Below, one piece after another: positions 34,883 through 56,712 of a stretch of 60,793 bases of DNA. Every line of letters starts with the position of its first letter. Within the stretch, counting starts at the first letter, position 1. The notes beneath the pieces are model-generated. The model was not told the origin of the DNA. It ran no database searches and saw nothing but the letters and a program-made list of their open reading frames with translations. A program made the translations under genes and the position numbers. Origin of the DNA: an uncultured Rhodobacterales bacterium (GTDB lineage: Bacteria > Pseudomonadota > Alphaproteobacteria > Puniceispirillales > GCA-002684695); contig CAZCWO010000001.1 of NCBI GenBank assembly GCA_964502335.1, positions 1 through 60,793 on the forward strand. Direction: 5' to 3'.

Positions 34883-35228
34883 TTACTCTTTCAAGTTTAA
34901 CATATCAGTCATAATCGTTGCTGACATACCACCGTCAATAGTAATGTTTTGGACTTTGATCCAAAAGCTATTTGGCGATGTCAGGAATACAATAATATCC
35001 GCAACTTCGCCAGGTGAAACTGGCCTGCCAACTCTTGCTATATTTTTAGCAACTTTTTCTCCAAAAGCACTAGTAAAATCTTGCAAAATCTCTTTACTCA
35101 CCGCAGCGGGACATACTGAATTAATTCGAACTCTCTGGCATTCAACTCTTCAGTTCTAAATATAATCATGGCAATCATTGTTTCTTTTGAATGGTTATAT
35201 GCTCTTACTGGATCGATTTCCTGTCTCT
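34883..35228 (-). pseudogene. frameshifted, 5'-truncated short-chain dehydrogenase/reductase remnant
   Basis: One frame (35228-35097) reads ..EIDPVRAYNHSKETMIAMIIFRTEELNAR.. and contains the YxxxK motif at 35198-35184. A second frame (35149-34883) reads RVRINSVCPAAV..PGEVADIIVFLTSPNSFWIKVQNITIDGGMSA*. The frame shift lies near 35130-35140, and stop codons lie upstream of 35228. The remnant ends 10 nt before the rdhA-like start. Confidence 0.6.
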
Positions 35229-35403
35229 TCAAATGTTAATTTTTGTCAGATTCATAAATCAGATACATAAAATCTATAGTTTTAGCACCCGCTTCAAGAT
35301 TCAAATGTGCTTTCATTGCTAGCAAAATCAGAGACGAATTTTTTAAAACTATTACACTAACGGGATTCCAGCGCAAGATTTTTAATGATCAAATGTTATT
35401 AAA

Positions 35404-35507
35404 TAGGATCCCAAAATTAAATTTTTATGTTAATAATAGAGTTTTAATGGGTAAATTACTTGACTTTGGGATCCATTTGTGAGTCATTAGAGCAGGGGGA
35501 TCCCATT
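35404..35507. promoter_or_regulatory. three GGATCCCA-type palindromic sites upstream of the TAXI-TRAP operon
   Basis: The sites are TAGGATCCCAAAA (core 35406-35413), TGGGATCCA (35467-35475, directly after a TTGACT hexamer at 35460-35465) and GGGATCCCA (35497-35505). Confidence 0.5.
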
Positions 35508-35679
35508 TTGGCAAGATTTCATGCTGATATCTTGTGGAAGGTAAAACTTCTTGTGACCCATGTTATGGAGGCGCTAAACAAAAATTTGATTGGCCTTCGC
35601 TAAAATGGCCTCACAAATTCCTCATATATATTTTGAACCTAAAATTGGTTCGTCAGAGCAAGAACAAATGGAGGAAATA

Positions 35680-36735
35680 ATGCTCAAGACACTTAAAACT
35701 GCGGCACTTGCCGCAACACTATTTTTCACTGGAGCCATAGCAAACGCAGAGGTTAATCTTACTGCTCATACTTCTGGGACTGGCACGGCGGTTCAAATCA
35801 ATGTGACAGCATTAGGTGAATTTGCCGCTGATCGTGGTATCGCAAACATTCAAATAAAGGACGGACAGACTGGAAGCAAATATAACGTGGCTTTGGCTGA
35901 AGGAAAAATTGACATCGCAAGTCTCCCGTTTGTATTACCATTCGTTTTATCAAAAGCTGTTGGACCTTATTCCAAACTTGACAAAGAGGAGGCTGCTGAA
36001 CTTGCCTCAAATATACGGTTACTTTACCCATTCACTTTAAGTATATTCACGTTGTATGCCTATGATGCCAAGGGTATAAACGGTTTTGACGGCTTGAAAG
36101 GACGCAAGATTTTAAACGGCCCGCCAAGAGGTACCGCTTCTCTTAACTCCCGTAGCCTTATTCAGCTTATGTCTGGTTTGAAGGCGGATGAAGATTATGA
36201 ATCGGTCACAGTCAACTGGAACCAGATGCCTGCAGCGATCATTGATGGAACAGTAGATGCTGTTCTTGTTCCTGCAATGTTTCCTGGTCCTAGGGTCACC
36301 CGAGCCAGTGCAGCTGGTGCAATGACCATGTGGTCAATGCCTAAGGATACCTTTGAGGCAGAAGCTTCACAAAAGTTTCTCAATAAACCTGGTTCTACAC
36401 CGTATATTGTTCCACTAGCAGATATTCAAGCCGCTATGGGATCCGGTTGGACGATCATTTCAGAAGATGATAAGTTCCGAGGAAAGGCGGTTCCAGGTGG
36501 TGACATGGTCAACAAGAGTATGGACGAAGAGTTGGCCTATCAACTCACCATGGCGCACATCGAGAACATCGATAGCATAAAAAAGTTAGCACCTTTTATG
36601 AAAACCTTAAACTTTGGAGTGATGGATCGCAGTGTTCATGGTCTCTGTGGCGCAAACAAAGTAAAATTTCATCCAGGAGCTGTGAGGGCTTGGGAGGAAT
36701 CTGGTTACAAAGTTCCAGACTGTGCCAAGCCGTAA
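35680..36735 (+). CDS. TAXI-family TRAP transporter solute-binding protein
   Basis: The ORF is open from 35590. The ATG at 35680 follows GGAGG by 7 nt and gives the signal peptide MLKTLKTAALAATLFFTGAIANA. The mature part is TAXI/NMT1-like. Confidence 0.75.
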   Translation: MLKTLKTAALAATLFFTGAIANAEVNLTAHTSGTGTAVQINVTALGEFAADRGIANIQIKDGQTGSKYNVALAEGKIDIASLPFVLPFVLSKAVGPYSKLDKEEAAELASNIRLLYPFTLSIFTLYAYDAKGINGFDGLKGRKILNGPPRGTASLNSRSLIQLMSGLKADEDYESVTVNWNQMPAAIIDGTVDAVLVPAMFPGPRVTRASAAGAMTMWSMPKDTFEAEASQKFLNKPGSTPYIVPLADIQAAMGSGWTIISEDDKFRGKAVPGGDMVNKSMDEELAYQLTMAHIENIDSIKKLAPFMKTLNFGVMDRSVHGLCGANKVKFHPGAVRAWEESGYKVPDCAKP

Positions 36736-36757
36736 TTATGACTTGAATTACTTTGAT

Positions 36758-36779
36758 GGGCGACTGAATGATGTCGCCC
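36758..36779 (+). terminator. intra-operon stem-loop (attenuator/terminator candidate) between the TAXI binding protein and the permease
   Basis: GGGCGAC (36758-36764), an 8-nt loop, then GTCGCCC (36773-36779), followed by ACTGTTTATGTT. It lies 23 nt after the SBP stop. Confidence 0.45.
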
Positions 36780-36827
36780 ACTGTTTATGTTGATCCTTGT
36801 TAGAAAATACTAAAGAATCATACTACA

Positions 36828-39182
36828 ATGAACAACCAAAAGAAAAACCAAACGAGGTCAAAAGATGATGACAGTGTTTTTATAGATCAGGTAGCGTATT
36901 GGTTGGCGCTACTGCTTGTCTTAGTCGGTCTTATTAACATAACTCCAGCAATTCCTGGTTGGGATGATCTCTGGAAAAATTTGACTGGGAATGACTTTTT
37001 CAAAATTAGGCGATATCCAACAGAATGGTTTTATCCCATCACATTTTTCTGGATGATGATGATTGTCGCACTAAAACAGTCAATGTGGAGAAGTTGGATT
37101 AAAAAAAATCCTATTATTAGAGGGTTGGGATTGTTGTTTGATATTGCATTGCTAATAGCTGCTGCTGCGATAGCATTAACTTACCTGATAGAAATTGAAG
37201 CAATTTGCCTCATCGATGTTTTTACTGGCGACAGAGAACGATTAGTAGCGAAAGCCTTGCAAGCTGAAATTGAATTTGCCGAGTTATATAGCCTACCTAT
37301 TCCGACCACAGCAGATGATCCAAGTTGCCAGAATACAACACAAAACTGGTTACTGCCCATCATGTTTGGTGCGGTTTTTATTTTTCTGGGTTACAATATC
37401 AAGGTATGGGGGTTTCCTTTAGTCATGGTATCGCTTCTAATCGCAACCTACACATTTGTCACGGTAATGAACTGGTATTTCTTTGGTACCGATCAAAACA
37501 AATATCTCGTTACGATCCTTAGTAGTGAAGAAGTTAGAACCCTTGGATCAGGTCGGGAGTTTGTATTGGACGCACTTATAAATCAAAATGCAGGATTATT
37601 GGGTCGTTTTATAAATATATTAATGCTGTTGGTATTTCCGTATATCATTTTGGGCGCCTTGTTTGGTCGTTGCGCTGGAGGGCAGGCGTTAATCAAACTG
37701 GCATTTATGTTGACACGAAAGTTAAGAGGTGGCCCAGCCCACGCCGCGATTGTATCTTCAGCACTCTTTGGCACTATAACGGGCGGTCCGGTTGTAAACG
37801 TTTTGTCAACTGGTGTTCTCACTATACCAATGATGGTGAAGCGCGGATTTTCAAAAGTATTTGCGGGTGGTGTTGAGGCCGCTGCCTCTTCTGGAGGAGC
37901 AATTATGCCACCAATTATGGGTGTGGCTGCCTTCGTCATGGCCTCATTGACAGGCGTTCCCTATAGAGAAATTATAATTGCTGCCATAATCCCAGCACTT
38001 TTCTATTTCTTAAGCTTATTTCTGTCCGTTGTCTTCCAAGCCCGTAAGCAGAATATTCAACCTGTGGGGGAGTTAACAGATGGGATGCGGATGAACAATC
38101 AAGACCGTCTGCACATTCTGCAGATATTTGGGCCAGTACTTCTGGTACTGGTTCTGCTTTTAACTCCAAAGGATAACGTCGCTTGCAGCTGGTTTTCGGT
38201 CATGCTTGGTTCTGTAGTTCAAATGAATGGAGGTGTTTGCGAAGTTACATCCATGCCATGGATAGTTGAACTTTTACAAAACACGGCTGGTGATGCTGGT
38301 GCTGCAGGTTGGTGGGCAGTAATGTTACTACTTCTTTTAATGTTTATAGATCGAGATTTTCGAACAAAACCGAGTAAAATTATTGATGCTTTATCTAAGG
38401 CTGGTTTTACGATCTCGACTCTCTTTCTGATGTTTCTTGCGGTGACAGTGATCGATGTTTGTCTTAATTTTACTGGTCTTGCCAAATTTGTTGCTGTCGA
38501 CGTCCTTAGTTTTTTAAAATCATTTGATGTCTCAAGTAGCTCAGCCATATTCCAACTATTCGCCCTTTTCTTGACAATGCTTTTGGCTATCTTGCTTGGC
38601 ATGGGAATGCCAGCTGCACCAGCCTATATCAATGTCGCACTTCTAATGGGTCCTATGCTAGTTGGTTTGGGTCTTGCCACTTTCACTGCGCATATGTTTG
38701 TGTTCTACTTTGCGGTTGCTTCAGCCATAACGCCGCCTGTGGCACTGGCTGCATTTGCAGCAACAACCATTACTCACCAGGATCCTATAAAGACCGGTTT
38801 CTCAGCAGTTAAATCAGGCATAGTAATGTTCACAATTCCATTTGTGTTTGCAATTTATCCGGAACTTCTTTTGATCAACCCAGCAGTAGTAGATCCCACT
38901 TCGGGGGAGTTTTTAGTGGGCTATGATGGTAGCATTGATGCCGTTTGGCTGTTGTTCCTAATTGCTCGGCTTGTCATAGCTCTTTATCTTGTAGCGAGCG
39001 CACTTGCAGCTTTTGATAGGAAAGCGCTTGGTTCAATTGAAATTCTAGTTCGCCTTGTAGTTGCGACCCTAATCCTGGCCAAACCGATGGAGATATTTGC
39101 TCCTGCAATTGCACTTAGTTTGGTGGTAATTGGGATCCACATATTTCGCCAGAAAAACACAACCGCCTACTTAAAAATTTAA
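36828..39182 (+). CDS. TAXI-type TRAP transporter fused permease (DctQ-like + DctM-like, 4TM/12TM fusion)
   Basis: 784 aa and highly hydrophobic. It has a diagnostic stretch: GGPAHAAIVSSALFGTITGGPVVNVLSTGVLTIPMMVKRGFSKVFAGGVEAAASSGGAIMPPIMGVAAF. Confidence 0.9.
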   Translation: MNNQKKNQTRSKDDDSVFIDQVAYWLALLLVLVGLINITPAIPGWDDLWKNLTGNDFFKIRRYPTEWFYPITFFWMMMIVALKQSMWRSWIKKNPIIRGLGLLFDIALLIAAAAIALTYLIEIEAICLIDVFTGDRERLVAKALQAEIEFAELYSLPIPTTADDPSCQNTTQNWLLPIMFGAVFIFLGYNIKVWGFPLVMVSLLIATYTFVTVMNWYFFGTDQNKYLVTILSSEEVRTLGSGREFVLDALINQNAGLLGRFINILMLLVFPYIILGALFGRCAGGQALIKLAFMLTRKLRGGPAHAAIVSSALFGTITGGPVVNVLSTGVLTIPMMVKRGFSKVFAGGVEAAASSGGAIMPPIMGVAAFVMASLTGVPYREIIIAAIIPALFYFLSLFLSVVFQARKQNIQPVGELTDGMRMNNQDRLHILQIFGPVLLVLVLLLTPKDNVACSWFSVMLGSVVQMNGGVCEVTSMPWIVELLQNTAGDAGAAGWWAVMLLLLLMFIDRDFRTKPSKIIDALSKAGFTISTLFLMFLAVTVIDVCLNFTGLAKFVAVDVLSFLKSFDVSSSSAIFQLFALFLTMLLAILLGMGMPAAPAYINVALLMGPMLVGLGLATFTAHMFVFYFAVASAITPPVALAAFAATTITHQDPIKTGFSAVKSGIVMFTIPFVFAIYPELLLINPAVVDPTSGEFLVGYDGSIDAVWLLFLIARLVIALYLVASALAAFDRKALGSIEILVRLVVATLILAKPMEIFAPAIALSLVVIGIHIFRQKNTTAYLKI

Positions 39183-39229
39183 TTACAAATTCTAAAATTA
39201 TATCCTAATAGGATAAGTTGGATAGAAAA

Positions 39230-40813
39230 ATGACTAATCAACCAAACTACATACTCTTCATTACCGACCAACAGCGGTTTGATTATCTCGGATGCTATGG
39301 TCATAAGATTTTGCGAACACCAAACATCGATGAAATGGCGTCAGAGGGTGTGGCCTATGATCGGTTTTACGTAGCATCACCAGTCTGCATGCCCAATCGT
39401 GCTAGTCTTATGACTTGCCGAATACCGTCAAGTCATGGTGTTAGATCCCTTGGTATTCCTTTAGGACATCAACATGTGACTTTTGTTGAAATGTTACGTG
39501 CTGCGGGTTATGACACTGCCTTGATTGGGAAAAGCCATATCCAGAACGTGACAGATTGGCCCACTCAGTTCGAACCACGTGAATATAGAAGTGGCTTTAC
39601 AACACCGCCCGAAGATTTGAAGCAAGCTATTCGAGCCGATCTTGACAACTCTAGTTATCAATATGAACAACAACGGTTTTGGGAGAAAGATAATCCAAAA
39701 GTAGCAATACCGTTTTATGGGTTTGAACACTACAATTCTGTTTTACGGCATGGAGCTAACAGCGGTGGTGATTTTGAACTCTGGCTCAAGAAGAATGCCC
39801 CAGAAATATTGAACTTGCGTGGTCGCAAGAACCAACTTCCACACAATTACACTTGCCCCCAAGCTATCCGAACAAAGATTCCCGAAGAGTATTATTCAAC
39901 GAGATATATTGCCAATCGGGCAAGTGAGTGGATCGAAAACCGAAAAGATAGTTCACAGCCATTTTTTCTGATGGTTTCCTTCCCGGATCCTCACCACCCG
40001 TTTACCCCACCCGGTAAATATTGGGATATGTACAAACCAGAGGATATGCCAGTGCCAATAGCTTATAAAATTAATGATTGGGATCCACCAAAATATGTGA
40101 AAATAGCAGAACGAGAGAGAGCTCGCGACAACTCTTTGGGTCAATATGCAGGATATTCTGTCGCTGTATCAAAACAGGAATCGATTGAAGCTCGCGCTCT
40201 GACATGTGGAATGATTACTATGATTGACGATGCGATTGGGCAGGTCAGAGCAGCGGCATTTAGTGCTGGCGTCACCGAAACCACTGTTCAAATATTTACT
40301 TCAGATCATGGTGACCATCTAGGCGACCACCGTCTGTTGTTTAAAGGTGCTGAGCAATATGACACGCTCACTCATGTTCCGTTTATCTGGGCTGATCCCA
40401 AAGGAGTGCAAGGCAAAAGGAGTGATGAAATCGCTCAAACTCATGATATTGGGTCGACAATCCTTGAGCATGCAAAAATAGAAGCACCTGATGGCATGCA
40501 GGGCCAGGTCATGTCCGTTGCTGGTGGAAAACGGCGTGAAGCTGCGTTGATACAATACGACACGCAACGTACTCAAGAGGCTTTCGGGCAAGAGCCACGT
40601 GTTCATACCATTATTTACGACCACTGGCGTTTATCTCTCTACCGCGGTATTTGCAAGAATGAGTTATTCAACCTCAAAGATGATCCGGGAGAAATGTATA
40701 ACCTATGGGACAGTATCGCTCATTCTGTGACCAAGAGTCAGTTGATTGAGAAGTTGGCAGAACTGGAAATAAACGCAATTGATAGGGTTCCACTGCCAAC
40801 TGCTCAGGCCTGA
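39230..40813 (+). CDS. formylglycine-type sulfatase (Cys-type), no signal peptide
   Basis: It starts MTNQPNYILFITDQQRFDYLGCYGH and has the sulfatase signature SPVCMPNRASLMTCR (CxPxR) and ..FTSDHGDHLGDH... The ORF track starts at a TTG at 39218, but I prefer the ATG at 39230. Confidence 0.9.
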   Translation: MTNQPNYILFITDQQRFDYLGCYGHKILRTPNIDEMASEGVAYDRFYVASPVCMPNRASLMTCRIPSSHGVRSLGIPLGHQHVTFVEMLRAAGYDTALIGKSHIQNVTDWPTQFEPREYRSGFTTPPEDLKQAIRADLDNSSYQYEQQRFWEKDNPKVAIPFYGFEHYNSVLRHGANSGGDFELWLKKNAPEILNLRGRKNQLPHNYTCPQAIRTKIPEEYYSTRYIANRASEWIENRKDSSQPFFLMVSFPDPHHPFTPPGKYWDMYKPEDMPVPIAYKINDWDPPKYVKIAERERARDNSLGQYAGYSVAVSKQESIEARALTCGMITMIDDAIGQVRAAAFSAGVTETTVQIFTSDHGDHLGDHRLLFKGAEQYDTLTHVPFIWADPKGVQGKRSDEIAQTHDIGSTILEHAKIEAPDGMQGQVMSVAGGKRREAALIQYDTQRTQEAFGQEPRVHTIIYDHWRLSLYRGICKNELFNLKDDPGEMYNLWDSIAHSVTKSQLIEKLAELEINAIDRVPLPTAQA

Positions 40814-40824
40814 CAATAGGTGAA

Positions 40825-42102
40825 TTAACTATTTTCCTGTTCTAACTCTTTTGCGCATTGAATATAGTAATGCCTTGTAGGGCAGTTGATTTGACTAACG
40901 GCATGCTCTCTTAGAATTTTGGCTTTAATTTTTTTGGTACTTTGGGCTTCTTGGTCAGAAAAAATCAACCTATCAACAAGTTGTAATGCCCATTGATAGT
41001 CTTTATCTGATCTAGCCTTCTGTACTTCGGCCATAACGATTTCCGGGCCTCCGGCAAGCTTAATGAACCTCTCCGCCTCTTCCCTTTGGGACAACCGACC
41101 AAGTGATGTCGGGTTGCCATCGAACCACCCCATAGTTCCAACGAAATATGCACGTACCGCATAATCAATACGCCCATAATATTCTCGTAAATATGATTTT
41201 TTAGCTAGTTTGGAGGGCAATTTCACACTATGTGCGAGCTCATCGATGGTAAGACCCGCATCCATTCCATTGCGCGTTTCATCTATCACGTGACGAATGG
41301 CGTCACGGTAGTCGGTCAATATTTCTGTGATAGTTTCTGCACCAAAAAGCGCCTCGGTATGGCCAGGTGCCAGTATCTCTGGTTCAAACGACATAAGAAG
41401 ATCCATTGTGTCAGCCCAGGTGTCAAAATCCCTATATTCAGTCCCACGTATGGCGTAAAGATTTGGGAAAGACCTGTAAAAATTATCTCCGCTGATCAAT
41501 AGTTTTTTTTCAGGGTACCAAACAACCATGTGATCAGGAGTTTCGCCGGGCGCCATTACTAATTCAAGATCAATCCCACAGATCTTTAGCTTTTCACCCT
41601 CCTCTCCAATCTGCCGTGTCGGGGCCAGAGCCCCTGCACCCATTCCTTTCATTGGCCGATCACCAGGTCCTATACCAATGCCAATGATCTCCTCAGGGTA
41701 AGATAGGCCAATGCCAAATTGACGCTTGGTTCTTAACTGCATTGCTTTGGCTGGGCGTGGGTGAGCGGTCGCGACAATTAAAGAGTCTTCGGAGGATTTA
41801 TTGCTCGCCAGAATCTCTGGGTTGCAACCGTCGGCAAAAACGCTTGCTCCTGATACGTGATCGCGATGTGAATGCGTGAGAATGATGGCCTTAACGGGTA
41901 GATCCGTGATTTTTCGAAATTCAGTCAAAATATTTTGTGCCGCAGCGGTTGTCTCCGTCGTATCGACGATTATTATACCGTCAGCTCCAACCAACATGTA
42001 TACATTTGAGGCTGCAAACCCAAAAGCTTGATAGACGTTATCTACAAGTTGAACAACTTTTTTTTGAAAGTATTTTGGGTGTGTTTTTAGTTCTGGATGC
42101 AT
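40825..42102 (-). CDS. metallo-beta-lactamase-fold alkyl/aryl-sulfatase (SdsA1/BDS1-like), lacking the C-terminal SCP2-like domain
   Basis: It has ILTHSHRDHVSGA (HxHxDH) and an alkyl-sulfatase dimerisation-domain pattern, GWFDGNPTSLGRLSQREEAERFIKLAGG..DYQWALQLVDRLIF. The ATG at 42102 is preceded by AGGGAGA. The ORF track's TTG at 42177 is probably an over-extension. Confidence 0.85.
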   Translation of the reverse strand: MHPELKTHPKYFQKKVVQLVDNVYQAFGFAASNVYMLVGADGIIIVDTTETTAAAQNILTEFRKITDLPVKAIILTHSHRDHVSGASVFADGCNPEILASNKSSEDSLIVATAHPRPAKAMQLRTKRQFGIGLSYPEEIIGIGIGPGDRPMKGMGAGALAPTRQIGEEGEKLKICGIDLELVMAPGETPDHMVVWYPEKKLLISGDNFYRSFPNLYAIRGTEYRDFDTWADTMDLLMSFEPEILAPGHTEALFGAETITEILTDYRDAIRHVIDETRNGMDAGLTIDELAHSVKLPSKLAKKSYLREYYGRIDYAVRAYFVGTMGWFDGNPTSLGRLSQREEAERFIKLAGGPEIVMAEVQKARSDKDYQWALQLVDRLIFSDQEAQSTKKIKAKILREHAVSQINCPTRHYYIQCAKELEQENS

Positions 42103-42281
42103 CTGTATTCTCCCTTTAAAATGATAGGCAGTCGGGTACTCAGTAATAGTTGTTTCCTGGATCCTGTATTGCTTCAAATTAAATCTTTGTAATCCATTGG
42201 ATTATGGCATCACAGAATTGGGTTTCTAAGAAAAGATTTTTACTGCCCACACTTTGTTATATTAATATTTATTTTTATCTA

Positions 42282-42359
42282 TTTGGGATCCTGAACGCAA
42301 GAAAAATTAACAATATTGAAAATTTTTACCTTGAGTTATTGCGTTGGGATCCCAATAAT
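42282..42359. promoter_or_regulatory. GGATCCCA-type operator sites and a sigma70-like promoter in the divergent sulfatase intergenic region
   Basis: The sites are TGGGATCC (42284-42291) and the perfect 12-bp palindrome TTGGGATCCCAA (42344-42355). The palindrome lies inside TTGAGT (42331-42336) - 17 nt - AATAAT (42354-42359), which faces the sulfatase gene at 42444. Confidence 0.5.
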
Positions 42360-42443
42360 GCAATATTGTCATAGTGCTGAACTTTTGTTTTACAAACTAG
42401 GTAAACTTATTAAATAATGAGTTCATGTAGATCTTGAGGGAAT

Positions 42444-44090
42444 ATGGGACGCAAAAACATACTTTTCATTATGTGCGATCAGCTTAGATTTGATTACTTA
42501 GGTTGCTCAGGGCACCCGAGCATAAAGACACCCAACATTGACTCATTAGCAGCACGTGGCGTTAGGTTTAGTAACGCATATTGCCAATCGCCGATCTGTG
42601 GTCCATCGCGAATGAGCGCTTACACGGGGCGATATGTGTCCTCACACGGTTCTTCTTCTAATTTTGCACCACTCCGCGTTGGTGAAAAGAACATTGGACA
42701 TTATTTGAACCCGCTCGGTGTACGGACCATTTTAGTAGGCAAAACCCATATGGTTGCCGATAAAGAGGGCATGCAAAGACTAGGTGTGGATCCAAAAAGT
42801 GACATCGGGGTTCACCACGCTCAAGCTGGATTTGAGGCCTATGAACGAGACGATGGGGTGCACCCTGATTCAATGGTCAATCCCGAACTTGCTTATAATA
42901 AATACCTGAAATCAAAGGGATATACCGAGGATGATAATCCTTGGCATTGGGCGGCCAATTCTGTTGATACCGAGAGAGGAGTTCGATCGGGGTTCTTTAA
43001 TGATCGAGTTGGTTTACCTGCCAGAGTTTCTGATGAAAACTCTGAAACACCTTATATTACTCGGCGCGCAATAGATTTTCTGTCTGAAGATGACAGTGAA
43101 GCTCCGTGGCTATTACACCTTTCCTTCATCAAACCACACTGGCCATACGTTGCGCCTGCTCCATACAACAACATGTATTCTGTGAATGACATAATCCCAG
43201 CAATCAAATCTGAATCTGAATTGAAAAATACGAATCAACTTATGAAACATTTCATGGATCGGGTTGCTGGAAAAACTTTTGGAAAGGAGGCTACTCGAGA
43301 AACTGTAATTCCAGTCTATATGGGACTTATTTCCCAGATTGATGATCAGCTTGGGATTTTGTTTGATTTCATGGATAAAAATGGTTTGCTAGAAAACACC
43401 TTGATTGTTTTCACATCTGATCATGGAGACTATCTTGGTGATCATTGGATGGGTGATAAGGATTATTTTCATAATCCAGCTGTTAAAATTCCCTTAATTA
43501 TAGTGGATCCAAGTGAAGCGGCAAATAGGACAAGAGGATCTGTGGATACGTCGTTGGTCGAGTTGATCGATTTAATCCCTACTTTTGTTGAATTTGCGGG
43601 TGGCGCTATTGCAGATCATATCTTGGACGGTCGGTCGTTAATGAAAAAAATTCTAGGCGCAGAGCACGACTGGCGAAATTATGTTATTAGTGAATATGAT
43701 TACTCTACCCAGGTTTTTCGTCCTGAAACTGGAAGAACGCCTCTCAACTGCCGATCCTACATGATTGCAAATGAAAATTGGAAATACATATTTGCCCCGG
43801 GGTATCCGCCTGTGCTCTTCGATCTTATAGGCGATCCTGATGAATTGAACGATCTTGGCCGTAGTCCGGAGTATACGGATATTCGTCGTTTAATGTTTAA
43901 CCAACTAGCTGAATGGTCATTACAATACCGGCAACGCGAAACTTGGTCAGAAGAACATAATATTCACATGACCGGGATGGAAGAGCAACTAGGAGTCCTC
44001 ATAGGTTATTGGGATGAAAAAAGTGCGGAGGGCAAAAATCCAAAAATACTACCTAAGCGAAAACCATTAAAGGCAACACGAACAGACTAA
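42444..44090 (+). CDS. formylglycine-type sulfatase (Cys-type), no signal peptide, second copy
   Basis: It starts MGRKNILFIMCDQLRFDYLGCSGH and has the signature SPICGPSRMSAYTGR (CxPxRxxxxTG) and ..FTSDHGDYLGDH... Confidence 0.9.
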   Translation: MGRKNILFIMCDQLRFDYLGCSGHPSIKTPNIDSLAARGVRFSNAYCQSPICGPSRMSAYTGRYVSSHGSSSNFAPLRVGEKNIGHYLNPLGVRTILVGKTHMVADKEGMQRLGVDPKSDIGVHHAQAGFEAYERDDGVHPDSMVNPELAYNKYLKSKGYTEDDNPWHWAANSVDTERGVRSGFFNDRVGLPARVSDENSETPYITRRAIDFLSEDDSEAPWLLHLSFIKPHWPYVAPAPYNNMYSVNDIIPAIKSESELKNTNQLMKHFMDRVAGKTFGKEATRETVIPVYMGLISQIDDQLGILFDFMDKNGLLENTLIVFTSDHGDYLGDHWMGDKDYFHNPAVKIPLIIVDPSEAANRTRGSVDTSLVELIDLIPTFVEFAGGAIADHILDGRSLMKKILGAEHDWRNYVISEYDYSTQVFRPETGRTPLNCRSYMIANENWKYIFAPGYPPVLFDLIGDPDELNDLGRSPEYTDIRRLMFNQLAEWSLQYRQRETWSEEHNIHMTGMEEQLGVLIGYWDEKSAEGKNPKILPKRKPLKATRTD

Positions 44091-44198
44091 AATAACTGAT
44101 TAAATCAATTTGACCTAAGAATGGTTGAATTTAAAATTAGATTTGGAATCAAAGCAACAAGATGCTTTCTCCAATTTAAGCAAAAATTGTGGTTAGTT

Positions 44199-44969
44199 TT
44201 AGGGTTCTTTGGTGGGGTTGCGATTTACAAGCTCAAACCCAGAATAACTGATTAAATCTGTTAGGCTTAGTTCTTCATGCCTCTCTTCAAATAGCTCAAT
44301 ATATTCGATTATAATGTTTAAATGTTCCCGCATCACACCTTCTGCACGAACTCCATCCCCTGCTCGGATCGCCTCATAAATCACCTTGTGCTGGGCGTTG
44401 CCTAGTCTCAACCGGAATAGGGTGCGCTCAATGCCTTTTTTTGTTCCGATAGTGGTTCGGTCAAAAGCCATTGAACCGACCGCAAGCATTGGAAGATAGT
44501 TAATTTGTTTGCAAGTGAAGTCGACAAAGTCATTGCCACAACCATCAAGGATAGTTTGGTGGAACACAGCATTTGCTTGTTGTAAATTTCTAATAGACGT
44601 ATCATCCAATACTCCTATATTTAAGAAGCGCTCAATTGTGTCTATAGCAGTTTTTAGATTCGGGAGAAAATTGACGCGAACAGATGACTGAGCCATAAGC
44701 CGTGCTGCAAGACTTTCTAAATGACCGAGAACCAATACAGCTTGTTTGACATCAGAAACGGTTGGGCTTTTTACAAAATAACCACGACCTTTGCCACGCA
44801 GAATAACACCTTCTCTCACTAGTAATCGGATAGCAAGTCGGACAGGAGTGCGCGAAACACCGTAGAAATCACAAAGCTGAGCTTCTGAGAGACGCTCGCC
44901 CGCCGAATGGGCGCCAACCAAAATGTCGTGCCGTATCTTGTCAGCCAGTTCAGTATCAATCGATTTCAT
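44199..44969 (-). CDS. GntR-family transcriptional regulator (FCD subfamily)
   Basis: It has an HTH region ..LCDFYGVSRTPVRLAIRLLVREGVILRGKGRGYFV.. and a helical C-terminal domain. Confidence 0.9.
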   Translation of the reverse strand: MKSIDTELADKIRHDILVGAHSAGERLSEAQLCDFYGVSRTPVRLAIRLLVREGVILRGKGRGYFVKSPTVSDVKQAVLVLGHLESLAARLMAQSSVRVNFLPNLKTAIDTIERFLNIGVLDDTSIRNLQQANAVFHQTILDGCGNDFVDFTCKQINYLPMLAVGSMAFDRTTIGTKKGIERTLFRLRLGNAQHKVIYEAIRAGDGVRAEGVMREHLNIIIEYIELFEERHEELSLTDLISYSGFELVNRNPTKEP

Positions 44970-44985
44970 GACCCTAATGTTAATA

Positions 44986-45133
44986 AATGGGATCCCAAAG
45001 TCAACATAAACTAAGAAATTATGAAATTATTAACATAATAGCTTGCAATGGGATCCCAATTATGGAATCAGTTATTGTGTAACCTTATTAATAAGACTGC
45101 TTTGGTTCTCAAATAATTTTTTAGGATCCCAAA
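44986..45133. promoter_or_regulatory. three GGATCCCA-type palindromic sites in the GntR/GST divergent promoter region
   Basis: The sites are TGGGATCCCA (44988-44997, 19 nt upstream of the GntR ATG), TGGGATCCCA (45049-45058) and TAGGATCCCAAAA (core 45124-45131). Confidence 0.55.
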
Positions 45134-45168: not shown

Positions 45169-45933
45169 ATGGTAGTGATCAATCCAACGAACAAATCCGT
45201 AGAGTCATATAAAGGACTTCACCTTTACCACGGCGATATATCGAATTGCTCAATGAGAGTTCGCATGGCATTGATAGAAAAGGACCTTCCTTGGACAAGT
45301 CATCATATTGACCTGAAGAAAAAAGAAAATATTACGGATGATTATTTTGGAATTAATCCCAATGGTCTTGTTCCGACTCTGGTTGACAATGGTATAGTTC
45401 ATATCGAGTCTAACGATATTATTAATTATCTCGATGAAACGTATCCCCAACCTTCTTTACGCCCCCAGAATGGAGAAAATAAGATGCTGGAATGGTTAAA
45501 ATTAGCAGCGTCACTTCATGTCCCAGCGATCAAGCCATATGTCTATGCGACAATGATTCAGAAAAAAGTGAAAAAAACCGCCGAGGAACAAAAAAAATAC
45601 GACGAACTTCAAAAAAATAAGGAGCTAAAGGAATTCCACTCAAAACATGCTGGTGATAAATCTTTTGGCAATGCCAGCATTGCCAAATCTGTTGAAATTC
45701 TCGAGGGTTGTTTTAACAAGCTAGAGAAAACATTAGAGGGGCGTGAATGGATCATGGGCGATAAATTTACATTGGCCGACATTTCCTGGATCCCGCTGCA
45801 TTTTGTACTCGTTGGATGTGGTTATCCATTTGAAAAGTATTCAAACATTTCCAGATGGTCTGAAAACTGTAGAAGTAGACCAAGTTTTAAGGAGGGAGTG
45901 TTGAAATGGTGCCCCGATTTCTCAAAGGTTTAA
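45169..45933 (+). CDS. glutathione S-transferase family protein with a long inter-domain insertion (GDAP1/LigF-like architecture)
   Basis: The ATG at 45169 is preceded by AAGGGAGA. The N-domain reads LHLYHGDISNCSMRVRMALIEKDLPW..INPNGLVPTLVDNGIVHIESNDIINYLDE. The ORF-track start at 45043 would run through the operator sites. Confidence 0.8.
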   Translation: MVVINPTNKSVESYKGLHLYHGDISNCSMRVRMALIEKDLPWTSHHIDLKKKENITDDYFGINPNGLVPTLVDNGIVHIESNDIINYLDETYPQPSLRPQNGENKMLEWLKLAASLHVPAIKPYVYATMIQKKVKKTAEEQKKYDELQKNKELKEFHSKHAGDKSFGNASIAKSVEILEGCFNKLEKTLEGREWIMGDKFTLADISWIPLHFVLVGCGYPFEKYSNISRWSENCRSRPSFKEGVLKWCPDFSKV

Positions 45934-45978
45934 TTATAATCTATATACACCGCCAATAGAAGGAAATAAAGACAAATT

Positions 45979-47418
45979 ATGGAAACTAAAACTAAAAGCA
46001 AACCACTTAAGCATTTTATAAACGGAGAGTGGGTCGAAGCAGAAACTGGCAATATTTTTGACGTTATGAACCCTCTCGATGATAGCCTTTACGCGCATGC
46101 GGCAAAAGGAACTGAAAGTGATATTCGAAAGGCTGTATCTGCAGCCAAATCAGCTTTCCCTGAATATCGAGAAACATTGCCTTCAGAACGGGAGCGCATG
46201 CTTCTCCGAATTGCTGAGATCATGGAAGAACGTAAGTCTGAACTTGTGGATTGTCTGATCGATGAGATTGGGTCACCGATACAAAAAGCAATGTTTGAAT
46301 TTACTAAGGGTCTTACTATGTTGCGTGCCGCTGCTGGATTGTGCCGCAATGTACGTGGTGAAACGATCCCATCTGATGCGCCTGGAAAGTTTTCGATGTC
46401 TATAAGGGAGCCATTGGGTGTCGTTGCAGTTATTACGCCGTTCAACGTACCACTGATCAAAACCACCCGGCTTGTCGCCAATGCTTTATCGCTAGGAAAT
46501 ACCGTCGTTCATCTGCCTTCAGAATTGGCGCCACATCTTACGGTTCTTTTCGCTGAAATCGTTGCCGACGCAGGATTTCCAGCGGGCTCTTATAATGTTG
46601 TAACTGGTTATGGTCATGAAATAGGTGATGCCCTTACCAGCCATAAAGACGTAGATTTTGTTACCTTCACAGGATCTACAGTCGTAGGGCAACACATCAG
46701 TGAAATTTGTGCAAAAAATAAAACTCCTAACACTCTTGAGCTTGGAGGCAAGAGTCCAACTGTTGTTCTGGCTGATGCAGAACTTGATAAAGTCATACCA
46801 GTCGCAGCTCGATCAATATTCATGTTTGCTGGGCAGGCATGTATCGGGTCTAGCCGGTTTTATGTCGAGCGCTCAATCTACGATGAATTTGTGAAACGAT
46901 TTGCCATAGTGGCCTCAAAGGTTGGGATGGGTAACCTACGTGACCCCAACACAGTAATCGCGCCGATAATTTCAGACAGGCAACGTACCCGTATTAAAGA
47001 TCATATTGCCGATGCCGTCTCAAAGGGTGCGAAGGTGGTGGTTGGTGGTGAATGGAAGGGGAATCGTTGTCAACCGACGTTGCTGACCGGTGTCTCTGAG
47101 GAGATGACCGTCTGCAAATCTGAAACATTTGGGCCAGTTACATCCATTTATCCCATTGATAGCTATGAAGAAGGCCTAAAAAAAGCTAATGATACCGAAT
47201 ATGGTCTCTCATCTGCAATTTTTACTAATGATATAAAACGTGCCTTTCACTTTGCTAGAAATATTGAAGCAGGCATGTGCCATATAAACGGCCCGACAAT
47301 CCATGATGAAGCGCATGTGCCGTTTGGTGGCAATGGAGAAAGTGGCGTTGGCCGTGAAGGTACGGATGCAGATATGGAAGCAATGACGGAACTAAAATGG
47401 GTCACGGTACAATTATGA
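45979..47418 (+). CDS. NAD(P)+-dependent aldehyde dehydrogenase
   Basis: 479 aa, with ELGGKSP (catalytic Glu), GQACIGSSR (catalytic Cys) and ETFGPV. Confidence 0.95.
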   Translation: METKTKSKPLKHFINGEWVEAETGNIFDVMNPLDDSLYAHAAKGTESDIRKAVSAAKSAFPEYRETLPSERERMLLRIAEIMEERKSELVDCLIDEIGSPIQKAMFEFTKGLTMLRAAAGLCRNVRGETIPSDAPGKFSMSIREPLGVVAVITPFNVPLIKTTRLVANALSLGNTVVHLPSELAPHLTVLFAEIVADAGFPAGSYNVVTGYGHEIGDALTSHKDVDFVTFTGSTVVGQHISEICAKNKTPNTLELGGKSPTVVLADAELDKVIPVAARSIFMFAGQACIGSSRFYVERSIYDEFVKRFAIVASKVGMGNLRDPNTVIAPIISDRQRTRIKDHIADAVSKGAKVVVGGEWKGNRCQPTLLTGVSEEMTVCKSETFGPVTSIYPIDSYEEGLKKANDTEYGLSSAIFTNDIKRAFHFARNIEAGMCHINGPTIHDEAHVPFGGNGESGVGREGTDADMEAMTELKWVTVQL

Positions 47419-48236
47419 CATATACACTTTATCATCACGGATCTTCCGTTTGTGCCGCCAAAGTAAGATTAGCGATGGACGAAAAGGGTCTTGAATGGGA
47501 TGGCGTTTACATTGACATCCTTAAAGGTGAGCAATTTGACCCAGAATATCTTAAACTAAATCCCAAAGGTCTGGTGCCAACCTTGATACACGATGAAACA
47601 GTCATTCCTGATTCCACTGTAATTATAGAATATTTAGACCAAATTGAACCTGAAACTAGCATTCATCCAACGGATCCTTGGGAACGTGCGCAATCCAGAT
47701 ATTGGACTAAAGCAGTTGATGAGGATCTTCATCCAGCTTGTGGTGCAGTTACTTTTGTATGTTCGCATAGGCACACTGTCTTAAAAAACCTTGGGCCGAA
47801 GGGGATAAAGAAATTTTTAGCCTCAACCCCTACTTTTTCAGTTACATCAAATTGGAAGGATCAGAAGGACGGGTTTATTAGATATGGATTTGATGCGCCC
47901 GGCGCTATAGATAAAATCAAATTATATGATAATTATCTCCACAAGATGGAGAAAGCGTTAAAAGGAGGGAATGATTGGCTAGTGGGTAATAAGTTCATGA
48001 TCGCTGATCTTGCCATGACACCATACGTCAATCGACTAGCCATGATGTCTATGCGTGATATGTGGGAAAAAGGCCGCTTACCTAATTTAGAAAAATGGTT
48101 CGCCCGAGTGGAAGCACGCCAAAATTTCAAGAAGTGCTTGATCGATTGGGTACCAGAAGATCTAACAAACGATTTGCGAGAAAATGGTGCCAAAAGTTGG
48201 CCAGAGGTTGCAAAAATTCTTGAAATCAAAATCTGA
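47415..48236 (+). CDS. glutathione S-transferase family protein (GDAP1/LigF-like architecture), second copy
   Basis: The ATG at 47415 overlaps the ALDH stop (ATGA). It has LYHHGSSVCAAKVRLAMDEKGLEW..LNPKGLVPTLIHDETVIPDSTVIIEYLD. Confidence 0.85.
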   Translation: MTYTLYHHGSSVCAAKVRLAMDEKGLEWDGVYIDILKGEQFDPEYLKLNPKGLVPTLIHDETVIPDSTVIIEYLDQIEPETSIHPTDPWERAQSRYWTKAVDEDLHPACGAVTFVCSHRHTVLKNLGPKGIKKFLASTPTFSVTSNWKDQKDGFIRYGFDAPGAIDKIKLYDNYLHKMEKALKGGNDWLVGNKFMIADLAMTPYVNRLAMMSMRDMWEKGRLPNLEKWFARVEARQNFKKCLIDWVPEDLTNDLRENGAKSWPEVAKILEIKI

Positions 48237-48251
48237 ACAAAGGAGAAAACA

Positions 48252-49007
48252 ATGGATCGTTTAACAGGAAAAACAGTTGTAATAACCGGTGCTGCACGTG
48301 GAATTGGAGCGATTATGGCTAGTCAATTGGCGCAAGAAGGTGCAAATGTCGTGGTCACGGATGTACTAGACATCAAAAATACAGTAAGCAAAATCAAAAG
48401 CAATGGGGGTATTGCTATGGGTTTAAACATAAATGTTACGTCAGATGATGACCTCGCACATATGGTTGAGGCCACTGTAAAGGAATTTAGCAGTTTGGAT
48501 ATTCTTATCAATAATGCATCTATTTTTGCAGCACTTCAACCCAAGCCTTTTTTGCAAATCGATAATGATGAATTTGATAAAGTCATGACAGTCAACGCAA
48601 GAGGCGTGCACCAGGCTACGAAAGCAGTTATCCCAGAAATGTTACGTGTGGGCGGGGGTAAAATTGTGAATATTGCGTCGGGAACTTTTTATTATGGTCC
48701 TCCAGGTTTGTCACACTATACCGCATCCAAAGCAGCTGTAATTGCACTAACCCGAAGTCACGCTCGCGAACTAGGAGAAAAGAACATTCAAATTAATGCG
48801 ATCGCACCAGGTCTCACCGAAAGTGAATCTATTCAAGGGCACACAGGATTTGATCCTGCACGTGGGCCGACTGTCCAATCACGTTCCATCAAACGAGCAA
48901 TGGTTCCCGAAGATCTGTTAGGAACTTTAATGTACCTGATCACATCTGACAGTGATTTTGTCACGGGACAAACTTTGAATGTAGATGGGGGAAAAATAAA
49001 TCTTTAA
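48252..49007 (+). CDS. short-chain dehydrogenase/reductase (classical SDR)
   Basis: It has TGAARGIGA, NNAS and YTASKAA, with a C-terminal ..GQTLNVDGG... Confidence 0.95.
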   Translation: MDRLTGKTVVITGAARGIGAIMASQLAQEGANVVVTDVLDIKNTVSKIKSNGGIAMGLNINVTSDDDLAHMVEATVKEFSSLDILINNASIFAALQPKPFLQIDNDEFDKVMTVNARGVHQATKAVIPEMLRVGGGKIVNIASGTFYYGPPGLSHYTASKAAVIALTRSHARELGEKNIQINAIAPGLTESESIQGHTGFDPARGPTVQSRSIKRAMVPEDLLGTLMYLITSDSDFVTGQTLNVDGGKINL

Positions 49008-49032
49008 GGAATAACAAAATTGACTTATAAAT

Positions 49033-49305
49033 ATGAAAAATAACATCCAAGAACCTACTTTCTTTGAAAAAGCTTTCAGAGGAGGAACCCCACTAAAAGT
49101 TCTTTTAACTGCGAGTGTTGTAGGGACAATTTTGATTATAATTAATCATGGCGATGTTATCATTCATGGAGAATTTCCAAACATCCTGAAAGTCATGCTT
49201 ACATATTGTGTGCCTTTTTTAGTTACAATATGGGGCGCAGTGTTAGGAAAAAAATATCAATGGGAAAAAGATTATGCACAAAAAATTAGCGACCTTGAAA
49301 ATTAA
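49033..49305 (+). CDS. small integral membrane protein (two predicted TM helices; possibly NrtS-like)
   Basis: 90 aa, with hydrophobic segments LKVLLTASVVGTILIIINHG and VMLTYCVPFLVTIWGAVLG. The resemblance to NrtS-type small proteins is a weak recollection only. Confidence 0.4.
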   Translation: MKNNIQEPTFFEKAFRGGTPLKVLLTASVVGTILIIINHGDVIIHGEFPNILKVMLTYCVPFLVTIWGAVLGKKYQWEKDYAQKISDLEN

Positions 49306-49369
49306 AATAAATTAACATAAAATTAAAACTAGACAATTTATTTATATGATAGAAAGAAAGGAGCATTTG

Positions 49370-49768
49370 ATGACCCAACGCGATTATGATGATGTGCCCG
49401 GAACCTACGTTTTGGATAGCCGAAGTTACCGCAAAGGGTATAGTCTCAACATGTTTTTGATGACACTGAACAAGTCTGTTCACCGTGATGAGTTTGCTTT
49501 GAATGAAAATGGCTATCTTGATAAGTTTAATGTGTCAAAAGAGCAAAAACAGGCTGTTATAGAACGTGACTATTTGCAGATGCTTAAACTTGGCGCAAAT
49601 GTCTACTATACTTTCAAACTCGTCAGCCATGACCGTCTCCAACCACAATATATGTATGGCAAAATGAGTGATCCAGAACTGAGTTTTGAGGAATTTCAGC
49701 AGATGATGCTATCAGGTGGAAGATCAATAGAGGGCAATCGAAGTAAAAAGGAGAAGAAAAATGGCTAG
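49370..49768 (+). CDS. ligA: protocatechuate 4,5-dioxygenase alpha subunit
   Basis: It starts MTQRDYDDVPGTYVLDSRSYRKGYSLNMFLMTLNK, a LigA-type N-terminus. AAGGAG lies 8 nt upstream of the ATG at 49370. It overlaps ligB by 8 nt. Confidence 0.9.
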   Translation: MTQRDYDDVPGTYVLDSRSYRKGYSLNMFLMTLNKSVHRDEFALNENGYLDKFNVSKEQKQAVIERDYLQMLKLGANVYYTFKLVSHDRLQPQYMYGKMSDPELSFEEFQQMMLSGGRSIEGNRSKKEKKNG

Positions 49769-50600
49769 AATTATATCTGGAATGGGAACTTCCCACGTCC
49801 CAGGAGTAGGGGCGGCAATCGACAATGGCAAAACAGATGAGCCCTACTGGAAACCACTATTTGCAGGATTTGAGCCATTGCGTGCTTGGCATCGTAAGCA
49901 TGTCCCAGATGTCAATATAATAGTTTTTAATGATCATGCTACATCCTTTTCACTTGATAAATATTCTACTTTTACTTTAGGAGTTGCCGAAACCTTCAAA
50001 CCTGCAGATGAAGGCTGGGGACCACGAAAGGTTCCTGATGTTCAGGGTCATCCTGATCTTGCTTGGCATATCTTAGAACAGCTTATCTTTGAAGAGTTTG
50101 ATATGGCAGTTGCCGGTAGCCTTGATGTTGATCACGGTCTGACGGTGCCCTTATCCATTGCCTATGATCAACCCAATCAATGGCCAACCGCAGTTATTCC
50201 ATTATGTGTCAACGTAATCCAATATCCACAACCTACAGCTTTGCGTTGTTACAAACTGGGGCAAGCAATTAAGCGGGCCGTTGAAAAGTTTGATCAGGAC
50301 CTCACTGTCAGCATCTGGGGCACTGGGGGCTTATCTCATCAACTTGGTGGTGAGAGAGCTGGCGTTGTTAATCCAGAATTTGACAAGGTTTTTTTAGACA
50401 ATATTGTCTCTGATCCACTTGCGAATACCCGTTTCACTCATACTGATTTTATCCGTGAGGCCGGATGTGAGGGCATTGAGATGATCATGTGGAATGTGAT
50501 GCGTGGTGCATTAAATGAGAAAGTTAACGAAGTTTATCGTTTCTATCACATTCCCGTTTCGGCAACCGCCTATGGCGCTATGATTTTAGAAAATACTTAA
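49761..50600 (+). CDS. ligB: protocatechuate 4,5-dioxygenase beta subunit (catalytic)
   Basis: It has MARIISGMGTSHVPGVGAAI..VFNDHATSF.., collinear with LigB of Sphingobium sp. SYK-6 as I remember it. Confidence 0.95.
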   Translation: MARIISGMGTSHVPGVGAAIDNGKTDEPYWKPLFAGFEPLRAWHRKHVPDVNIIVFNDHATSFSLDKYSTFTLGVAETFKPADEGWGPRKVPDVQGHPDLAWHILEQLIFEEFDMAVAGSLDVDHGLTVPLSIAYDQPNQWPTAVIPLCVNVIQYPQPTALRCYKLGQAIKRAVEKFDQDLTVSIWGTGGLSHQLGGERAGVVNPEFDKVFLDNIVSDPLANTRFTHTDFIREAGCEGIEMIMWNVMRGALNEKVNEVYRFYHIPVSATAYGAMILENT

Positions 50601-50624
50601 GATTTACCTATAGGAACAAATACA

Positions 50625-51578: not shown

Positions 51579-51584
51579 TAAGTA

Positions 51585-53593: not shown

Positions 53594-53594
53594 A

Positions 53595-54323: not shown

Positions 54324-54328
54324 AACTA

Positions 54329-55339: not shown

Positions 55340-55398
55340 AGGAGGTGCATTAAGATAATTCTTATGTTGCTTAGACAGCAAAAACAAAGTTTTCTGCA

Positions 55399-56703: not shown

Positions 56704-56712
56704 CAGCTTTTC

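Follow-up and report, generated by a model that had tools for sequence, protein, structure and literature searches.

The GGATCC-centred palindromes that recur in three promoter regions of a 60,793-nucleotide stretch from an uncultured Rhodobacterales bacterium (contig CAZCWO010000001.1, positions 1–60,793; hereafter the window) are very probably, at about 85% by our estimate, operators of the repressor encoded next to them, a GntR/FCD protein of the VanR group (44199–44969). They lie between the regulator gene and a divergent operon for glutathione S-transferases (GSTs), an aldehyde dehydrogenase (ALDH), and a short-chain dehydrogenase/reductase (SDR), between a divergent arylsulfatase/alkylsulfatase pair, and upstream of an operon for a TAXI-type tripartite ATP-independent periplasmic (TRAP) transporter and a sulfatase. 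An initial annotation made from the window alone had already proposed that the three regions share one operator and that the neighbouring GntR protein binds it; the sites found in a comparison of 80 related loci strongly back this proposal.

All palindromes listed in that annotation are present, with GGATCC starting at 35406, 35469, 35498, 42286, 42347, 44990, 45051, and 45124; the copy at 42344–42355 is the perfect 12-mer TTGGGATCCCAA. Within the window, GGGATCCC occurs four times against 0.49 expected, a number reached in none of 100 shuffles, and TGGGATCCCA with at most one mismatch has six matches (35404, 35496, 42345, 44988, 45049, and 45122), all of them intergenic. We trained a 14-bp weight matrix solely on the related loci, leaving the window out (consensus TTTGGGATCCCAAA, core TGGGATCCCA). 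At 12 bits or more, it returns seven window sites (35402, 35465, 42282, 42343, 44986, 45047, and 45120), compared to a mean of 0.92 and a maximum of 4 in 300 dinucleotide-preserving shuffles; six sites reach 15 bits, compared to 0.31 in the shuffles. All seven strong sites are confined to the three regulatory regions, which together make up 1,347 bp or about 2% of the window. A search without any assumed motif leads to the same element, as the only k-mers of at least eight bases common to all three regions are pieces of GGATCCCAAA. Similarity among the sites stops beyond ~19 bp.

Outside these regions, the coding copies at 36435, 39129, and 5542 are weak by matrix score, and no site of 8 bits or more is found in 49000–60793, in agreement with the earlier statement that the motif is missing from the lig and dctPQM promoters. 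Two weaker copies do not hold up as conserved operators. The copy at 35496–35505, counted before among eight intergenic copies that are indeed all present, scores below 8 bits, is not conserved in the relative L081 (77% identity), and is probably not a conserved operator. Likewise, the degenerate TGGATCC at 42158, present as stated, falls within the alkylsulfatase 5′ leader (gene start 42102) and is not conserved in L081. A third copy, at 39131 in the permease gene (11.2 bits), had been considered as an internal promoter; it is missing from all 27 permease orthologues, which speaks against that role.

The arrangement recurs far beyond the window. A scan of one genome per species with homologue alignment gives at least 80 loci (57–69% protein identity) from Rhodobacterales/Paracoccaceae, Rhizobiaceae/Hoeflea, Granulosicoccaceae, and one Chromatiales bacterium. 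Cultured carriers include Planktotalea frisia SH6-1, Pelagimonas varians DSM 23678, Rhodobacteraceae HTCC2083, Hoeflea sp. AS16, and Shimia abyssi; OZ219862.1 and CP196552.1 are examples of complete carrier genomes. Upstream of the regulator gene, three sites are found in 61 of the 80 loci, two in 11, four in 3, one in 4, and none in 1, so that 75 loci carry at least two. These TTTGGGATCCCAAA-like sites place GGATCC at 26, 89, and 162 nt before the regulator start codon in nearly every locus. When 8-mers in the 240 bp upstream of the regulator are counted without an assumed motif, pieces of CTTGACTTTGGGATCCCAAA(TCAAG) come out on top, in 47–64 of 74 loci. Further, exactly two sites separate the genes in 21/21 divergent arylsulfatase/alkylsulfatase pairs, and 14 of 18 TAXI orthologues have upstream sites, most TAXI-TRAP operons being preceded by two. 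Strong sites (at least 15 bits) flank core genes almost exclusively. GntR paralogues of ~30% identity in the same loci have no adjoining sites.

The frequency of the motif in coding and intergenic DNA, raised in the initial annotation as a decisive comparison, was determined on 1.46 Mb of related loci: 311 of 333 sites are intergenic or in the over-extended 5′ ends of naive open reading frame (ORF) calls. The other 22 lie deep inside called ORFs and are mostly weak; five exceed 18 bits, and four of these five fall in over-extended calls of the regulator's own ORF. In marine-metagenome relatives (77–92% identity), the operators together with their −35 boxes form conserved islands in the same layout of three, two, and two sites. 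Except for a distal TAXI site of 12.5 bits, these sites all reach at least 17 bits; the rest of the 20.8 kb is free of sites of 9 bits or more. Enrichment, position, and conservation of the sites, together with the family of the regulator and the content of the regulon, are thereby established in this analysis.

The regulator, a protein of 256 residues, matches Pfam GntR (PF00392, 60.5 bits; cut-off 27) and FCD (PF07729, 46.4 bits; cut-off 24.3). Among proteins of solved structure, Atu1419 of Agrobacterium fabrum is closest to it (E = 4e-22). In the AlphaFold model (pLDDT 79), three helices and two strands precede a purely helical domain with six main helices (71–94, 102–118, 123–143, 147–163, 177–203, and 206–230). 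In Foldseek, the top 12 matches are all Atu1419 (VanR) chains with TM-scores of 0.67–0.76, other VanR-group members come next, and FadR-group structures fit worse (0.4–0.5). Because of the six rather than seven C-terminal helices in this monomer model and because of this ranking, we place the protein in the VanR group. N133, H137, H194, and H216 are invariant among 25 homologues and align with N137, H141, H192, and H214 of Atu1419. The SRTPVR recognition helix is equally invariant.

Homologues carry the JGI label “GntR regulator of vanillate catabolism”, a name that expresses homology only. Across the window and the 80 loci, strong sites flank no vanAB genes; their neighbours are the regulator gene, the TRAP/GST/ALDH operon, the sulfatases, and the TAXI operon. 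As vanAB, whose control defines VanR proper together with a response to vanillate, is not among the targets, the regulator should not be given that name.

The position of the sites on the promoters is highly regular (Table 1). Each primary operator directly follows a −35-like hexamer, overlaps it by one or two bases, and occupies the spacer; the hexamer is TTGACT for the regulator and TAXI promoters and TTGATT, TTGCAA, or TTGCGT for the others. At the regulator gene, the equivalent of O1 stands at a constant 26 nt ahead of the start codon in nearly all of the 80 loci, 59 listed loci have CTTGACTTTGGGATCC conserved, and AAAGTCAA ranks among the most enriched 8-mers. Placed between the TTGACT box and the start codon, O1 covers about −30 to −17 of the predicted promoter, which supports autoregulation by promoter occlusion. 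Autoregulation had already been suggested from the nearness of this site to the start; the constant distance, in the window as in the loci, agrees with it in position, and the function is predicted from there. The regulator gene has no Shine–Dalgarno sequence before its start. Since TTGACT is also exactly 35 nt from the ATG, the regulator mRNA is probably leaderless. The same pattern, a −35 box at 35 nt and no Shine–Dalgarno sequence, is likewise seen in ~59 related loci.

On the other side of this intergenic region, the block TGATTCCATAATTGGGATCCCATTGCAAG at O2 is conserved among close relatives, and the O2 equivalent in the loci is followed by ATCAAG, the −35 box on the other strand. A third site at 72–75 bp is found in most loci. 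Two further promoter elements were considered here and set aside: a minus-strand TTGACT-16-AATTAT promoter over O3 exists in the window, but its TTGACT is missing from Rhodobacterales loci, and the conserved GGAATC block as −10 of the operon promoter lies at a distance from O2 that differs between lineages. In the divergent sulfatase pairs of the loci, both sites abut a TTGAnT-like box. For the arylsulfatase promoter, the comparison prefers TTGCGT-17-AATATT over the TTGAGT-17-AATAAT named before, both being predictions only. At the TAXI promoter, ACTTGACTTTGGGATCCATTT..GTCATT is conserved with respect to L081 and the loci. The distal TAXI site keeps only its promoter-facing half, GGATCCCAAA, well conserved; in the loci, it is found 62–64 bp upstream, half-conserved, and without a neighbouring −35 box. 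Predicted transcription starts fall near 35495, 42265, 42374, and 45078. Two of the predicted 5′ leaders are long, ~185 nt for the TAXI operon (35495–35680) and ~163 nt for the alkylsulfatase gene (42102–42265), and an Rfam scan of both matched no RNA family.

Table 1. Putative operators, predicted promoter elements, and genes of the regulon and its surroundings (window coordinates).
Feature	Position	Strand	Remarks
Distal (auxiliary) operator, TAXI-TRAP/sulfatase operon	35402..35415		17.4 bits
Predicted TAXI-TRAP promoter with proximal operator	35460..35478	+	−35 TTGACT 35460-35465; operator TTTGGGATCCATTT 35465-35478, 12.5 bits
Weak extra copy AGGGGGATCCCATT	35494..35507		<8 bits; near predicted transcription start
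TAXI binding protein	35680-36735	+	start revised via conserved MLxTL N-terminus and Shine–Dalgarno sequence; target operon 1 (35680..40813)
Fused TRAP permease	36828-39182	+	target operon 1
Sulfatase	39218-40813	+	target operon 1
SdsA1-type metallo-beta-lactamase alkylsulfatase	40825..42102	-	425 aa; without C-terminal SCP2 domain
Operator of alkylsulfatase promoter	42282..42295		19.0 bits; −35 TTGCGT on - strand, 42300-42295
Predicted arylsulfatase promoter	42339-42344 (−35); 42362-42367 (−10)		−35 TTGCGT, −10 AATATT; operator abuts −35
Operator of arylsulfatase promoter	42343..42356		19.7 bits; 61 bp from partner; conserved in L086 and L081
Formylglycine-type arylsulfatase	42444..44090	+	close to SpAS1 of Ruegeria pomeroyi (PDB 4UPI, E = 8e-181)
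GntR/FCD regulator, VanR group	44199..44969	-	256 aa; Pfam GntR and FCD
Operator O1	44986..44999		TTTGGGATCCCATT on - strand; 21.0 bits; within spacer of the regulator's own predicted promoter
Predicted regulator −35 box TTGACT	44999..45004	-	starts exactly 35 nt before A of ATG (44969)
Predicted −35 box TTGCAA, GST-ALDH-GST-SDR promoter	45043..45048	+	2-nt overlap with O2; placed from conserved arrangement
Operator O2	45047..45060		19.1 bits; 61 bp from O1; spacer of predicted divergent GST-ALDH-GST-SDR promoter
Operator O3	45120..45133		21.4 bits; 73 bp from O2; predicted operon leader, 36 nt before GST start 45169
LigF-like GST	45169-45933	+	start revised; target operon 4 (45169..49007)
Aldehyde dehydrogenase	45979-47418	+	target operon 4
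LigF-like GST	47397-48236	+	target operon 4
SDR	48252-49007	+	target operon 4
ligABCUIKJ	49346-55339	+	protocatechuate 4,5-cleavage genes

The motif itself has the features of a VanR/GntR-type operator. The initial annotation had seen no resemblance to the canonical FadR-type GntR operator, a remark that in substance does not hold: TGG-GATC-CCA agrees with TNG(N)nCNA, the signature of the family, the arginine contact to the G being a prediction only. Aligned on the dyad, the half-sites of Atu1419 (ATGTA), Caulobacter VanR (TTGGA), and the window (TGGGA) all have G at position 3. From this shared G and the fit to the signature, the window motif is recognizable as a member of this operator type.

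For Caulobacter VanR, the proposed binding sites are two copies of ATTGGATCCAAT on the vanAB promoter, which flank the −35 box and cover the −10 box and +1. This repressor resembles the system described here as a GntR-type repressor divergent from its target operon, with operators on the core promoter and a 12-bp perfect palindrome that has a GGATCC core and a G three bases from the dyad. In contrast, the half-site is TTTGGGA here and ATTGGA there, the targets are sulfatases, GSTs, and TRAP transporters instead of the vanAB demethylase, and the spacer operators lie 61–63 or 73 bp apart rather than as two close copies bracketing one promoter. The likeness is one of operators and layout.

The second reference is Atu1419 (PDB 6Z74, 6ZA0, 6ZA3, 6ZA7, and 6ZAB), reported as the first tetrameric regulator in the GntR/FCD family, whose members are usually dimers. 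It loops DNA, contacts G3 of its palindrome ATGTATACAT by Arg45, and also binds degenerate auxiliary sites. Its Asn/Asp and three-His metal site is present in TM0439 and PS5454 as well. The window regulator shares with it the six-helix FCD domain, the Asn/His3 metal ligands, and the SRTP helix with the arginine predicted to read guanine. Moreover, in both systems the palindrome has 10 bp, a G at position 3, and AT in the centre. Common to both are also operators in pairs, some of them degenerate and auxiliary, autoregulation (predicted for the window), and genes of aromatic-compound catabolism that are controlled or adjoin. They differ in protein sequence (27–29% identity), in the operator (ATGTATACAT versus TGGGATCCCA), and in operator distance (109 and 190 bp versus 61–73 bp); the effector of Atu1419 is N5,N10-methylene-tetrahydrofolate.

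The FadR group (FadR, PdhR, and LldR, with TGGTNxACCA-type operators) has the winged-helix domain and the arginine–guanine contact (predicted for the window) in common with the window regulator, and its palindromes obey TNG(N)nCNA with 2–3 nt between the GT and AC boxes. However, it has seven C-terminal helices, and position 4 is canonically T (A), whereas it is G here (C in the other half-site). The switch as proposed is of an ordinary kind, a local VanR-group GntR repressor with palindromic operators; its architecture is unusually regular.

This regularity is most apparent in the spacing. Distances between neighbouring sites in the loci fall into two sharp classes that average 62.3 bp (n = 114) and 73.3 bp (n = 56), corresponding to six and seven helical turns, one turn (11 bp) apart. 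The window spacings of 63, 61, 61, and 73 bp belong to the same classes. Rarer spacings of ~21, 42, 53, 84, 126, and 137 bp fall near multiples of 10.5, and at 10.5 bp per turn the spacing phase is near 0 (R = 0.81). The sequence between the sites is not conserved, while their spacing is. A promoter operator with auxiliary operators integral helical turns away is known from LacI, GalR, and AraC, which belong to unrelated protein families; for the present system, looping is a prediction. From the phased spacing and the precedent of Atu1419, we infer that paired operators are bound cooperatively, the simplest arrangement being a dimer of dimers that closes a short loop.

In the mechanism that we propose, a repressor dimer would read each palindrome, with the recognition-helix arginine (R40 of SRTP) contacting the G three bases from the dyad. 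Each primary operator starts within the −35 box, at its final one or two bases, and would fill the spacer (about −30 to −17), so that bound repressor would shut RNA polymerase out of four promoters: its own, that of GST-ALDH-GST-SDR, that of the arylsulfatase with the divergent alkylsulfatase, and that of the TAXI-TRAP/sulfatase operon. The phased operator sets at 61–63 and 73 bp, including auxiliary sites without a promoter of their own, could be bridged two at a time by a dimer of dimers over a short loop, as in Atu1419. A small-molecule inducer binding to the metal-containing FCD domain would free the DNA. Which protein binds, the sign of regulation, looping and tetramerization, and the inducer are all predictions.

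The strongest rival accepts the sites as true operators of the adjacent repressor, but has independent dimers occupy them without looping, the spacing being a consequence of back-to-back promoters. We rate it somewhat less likely than not. Each site in both divergent regions does abut its own −35 box, GntR/FCD regulators are usually dimers, with Atu1419 first to be reported as a tetramer, and Suvorova et al. report divergons with a separate site per operon. Against this stand the distal TAXI site, which keeps its 62–64 bp spacing without a −35 box, and O3, which lies in the leader 72–75 bp from O2. The two spacing classes one turn apart, the rarer spacings near multiples of 10.5, and the conservation of spacing but not of the intervening sequence also count against it. 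Independent dimers are a viable account of the divergent regions and explain the distal TAXI site and O3 less well.

That the regulator acts from these sites as an activator or with a dual role is improbable. The distal TAXI site is centred ~87 bp upstream of the predicted start, a workable position for an activator, and the poorly defined −10 elements make the promoter assignments predictions. However, an overlap with the −35 box and occupation of the spacer, as seen for the primary sites, and a place downstream of the start, as for O3, are classic repressor positions; Caulobacter VanR and Atu1419 are both repressors.

It is very improbable that the palindromes are bound by another transcription factor encoded elsewhere while the GntR protein reads something else. 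A GGATCC-type palindrome could suit other dimeric helix-turn-helix proteins, and the protein–DNA link comes here from sequence comparison. Yet sites and regulator gene occur together in 79 of the 80 loci, in Alpha- and Gammaproteobacteria, one site has a constant place in the regulator's promoter, no further regulator gene is conserved in the cluster, and the motif is consistent both with the GntR signature and with what the two known VanR-group relatives use as operators. A non-regulatory origin, as a dispersed repeat, restriction or methylation bias (BamHI/GATC), or chance, is effectively refuted: the GGATCC hexamer is over-represented in the window in general (23 versus 9.5 expected), but the similarity of at most ~19 bp excludes mobile-element copies, the sites are limited to the promoters of one gene set across distant genomes from ~38% to >60% GC, and the coding copies are weak and not conserved.

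Several points weigh against operators of the adjacent repressor joined by loops. A loop of 61–63 bp is very tight, and the constant spacing in the divergent promoters could instead stem from back-to-back promoter geometry. Many of the loci are related to each other, so their counts are not independent events. The training sites of the matrix had been picked for GGATCC content, which is offset by the motif-free k-mer analyses of the three window regions and of 8-mers upstream of the regulator. Regulator and operator are connected by comparison of sequences, the sole structurally characterized relative is of low identity and reads a different half-site, and the −10 elements are placed without confidence.

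The gene set under these sites is conserved as well. It consists of the regulator and, transcribed away from it, (dctP-GST-dctQM)-ALDH-GST-SDR, after which a cupin, an OsmC-like protein of 393–400 aa, and an arylsulfatase often come, together with the divergent arylsulfatase/alkylsulfatase pair and the TAXI-TRAP-sulfatase operon. The cluster adjoins genes for protocatechuate 4,5-cleavage (lig) in the window, as it does in at least eight of the loci. In most Rhodobacterales/Rhizobiales loci (e.g., L008, L016, L033, and L044), the operon opens with a DctP-type TRAP transporter that has a GST gene between dctP and dctQ; in the window and its closest relatives, this transporter is absent and the operon opens with a GST. 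The OsmC-like protein is core in 41 of the 80 loci, after the SDR gene or the regulator (e.g., L081:4705-5886), and has two OsmC stretches matched by Pfam; tblastn does not find it in the window. In L009, L038, and L074, a TauE/SafE-type anion exporter gene adjoins the regulator, which would fit export of released sulfate or sulfite.

Eight loci belong to Gammaproteobacteria (L001, L022, L027, L042, L048, L057, L063, and L067, from Granulosicoccaceae and a Chromatiales symbiont of Bugula). Regulator, equal operator spacing, and core genes are all kept in them, and the presence of the cluster in this class points to horizontal transfer of the whole regulated cluster. No plasmid-borne orthologues were found at E ≤ 1e-30, and a synthetic Pvan promoter query gave no match in engineered E. 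coli genomes. Literature searches on the gene set and on VanR motifs in comparative genomics returned no description of this operator or regulon, a search on the motif string returned BamHI primers only, and the main text of the GntR motif survey does not mention VanR.

The gene calls of the initial annotation hold overall, with three starts (TAXI protein, alkylsulfatase, and first GST) moved using relatives; that of the alkylsulfatase, 42102, is set by 425-aa gene calls in relatives and a Shine–Dalgarno sequence. 4UPI is SpAS1, which primarily hydrolyses aryl sulfates. The beta-etherase LigF aligns with each of the two GSTs along the whole protein and is the best PDB match of the second. Between the SDR gene and ligA, no terminator-like site is found, and the GST-ALDH-GST-SDR operon may read through into ligABCUIKJ. 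An ORF of 90 aa in the same interval (49033–49305) has hydrophobic stretches and matches nothing in Pfam; at the corresponding position in L085, a relative of 92% identity, the called ORF has 95 aa.

Further observations concern the surroundings. A 295-aa protein without Pfam match (58339–59226, minus strand) adjoins dctPQM. In L027, a Granulosicoccaceae locus, its homologue (53% identity) immediately follows the alkylsulfatase gene, a hint that the protein may be tied to the regulon in function. The gap of 0.8 kb that separates the gene for a 1069-aa Fe-S protein from the TAXI promoter harbours the remnant of an SDR gene (34892–35137, minus strand), which comprises the C-terminal ~80 residues with 48% identity (blastx) to residues 189–271 of the L015 SDR. 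Rfam reports PYLIS_3, the pyrrolysine insertion sequence of mttB, at 25022–25115 (minus strand; 42.2 bits, gathering score 38). This match lies inside an MttB-family methyltransferase gene (24600–26153) with an uninterrupted ORF of 517 aa and is probably coding-sequence homology, not a working recoding element. G+C content is ~29–35% in the first 24 kb and ~38–46% in the regulon and lig part (28000–60793), a shift that could mark a horizontally acquired catabolic island.

The combination of sulfatases, LigF-like GSTs, SDR, ALDH, and TRAP transporters with adjoining protocatechuate 4,5-cleavage genes suggests, at low confidence, that the regulon takes up, desulfates, and processes the side chain of a sulfated aromatic or aryl-ether compound. 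Uptake would be by the TAXI and DctP-type TRAP transporters, SpAS1-like arylsulfatases and the SdsA1-like alkylsulfatase would remove the sulfate, and LigF-like GSTs, SDR, and ALDH would process the product toward protocatechuate 4,5-cleavage. The broader idea, an undescribed pathway for sulfate-esterified aromatic or aryl-ether compounds that is widespread in marine Rhodobacterales and Rhizobiales and present in some Gammaproteobacteria, under a tetrameric VanR-group repressor with unusually tight six- and seven-turn loops, is tentative, and we consider it rather unlikely to hold in full.

For annotation, the analysis provides an operator consensus, seven sites, four predicted promoters, and a probably leaderless, autoregulated regulator gene. 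The operator–repressor pair could serve as a genetic switch, kin to the widely used vanillate switch of Caulobacter. The strict six- and seven-turn spacing over hundreds of sites is a natural data set against which short-range looping could be tested in the VanR group, in which Atu1419 is the only GntR protein demonstrated to be tetrameric. It comes with a regulon, tightly conserved in many marine bacteria, of arylsulfatases including relatives of SpAS1, an alkylsulfatase, GSTs, ALDH, SDR, two TRAP transporters, and often the OsmC-like protein, for which no substrate has been described; in the literature found, SpAS1 was studied with model substrates only. The common operator offers a handle on the inducer and hence on the natural compound; a sulfated aromatic from the dissolved organic matter of the sea is a candidate.

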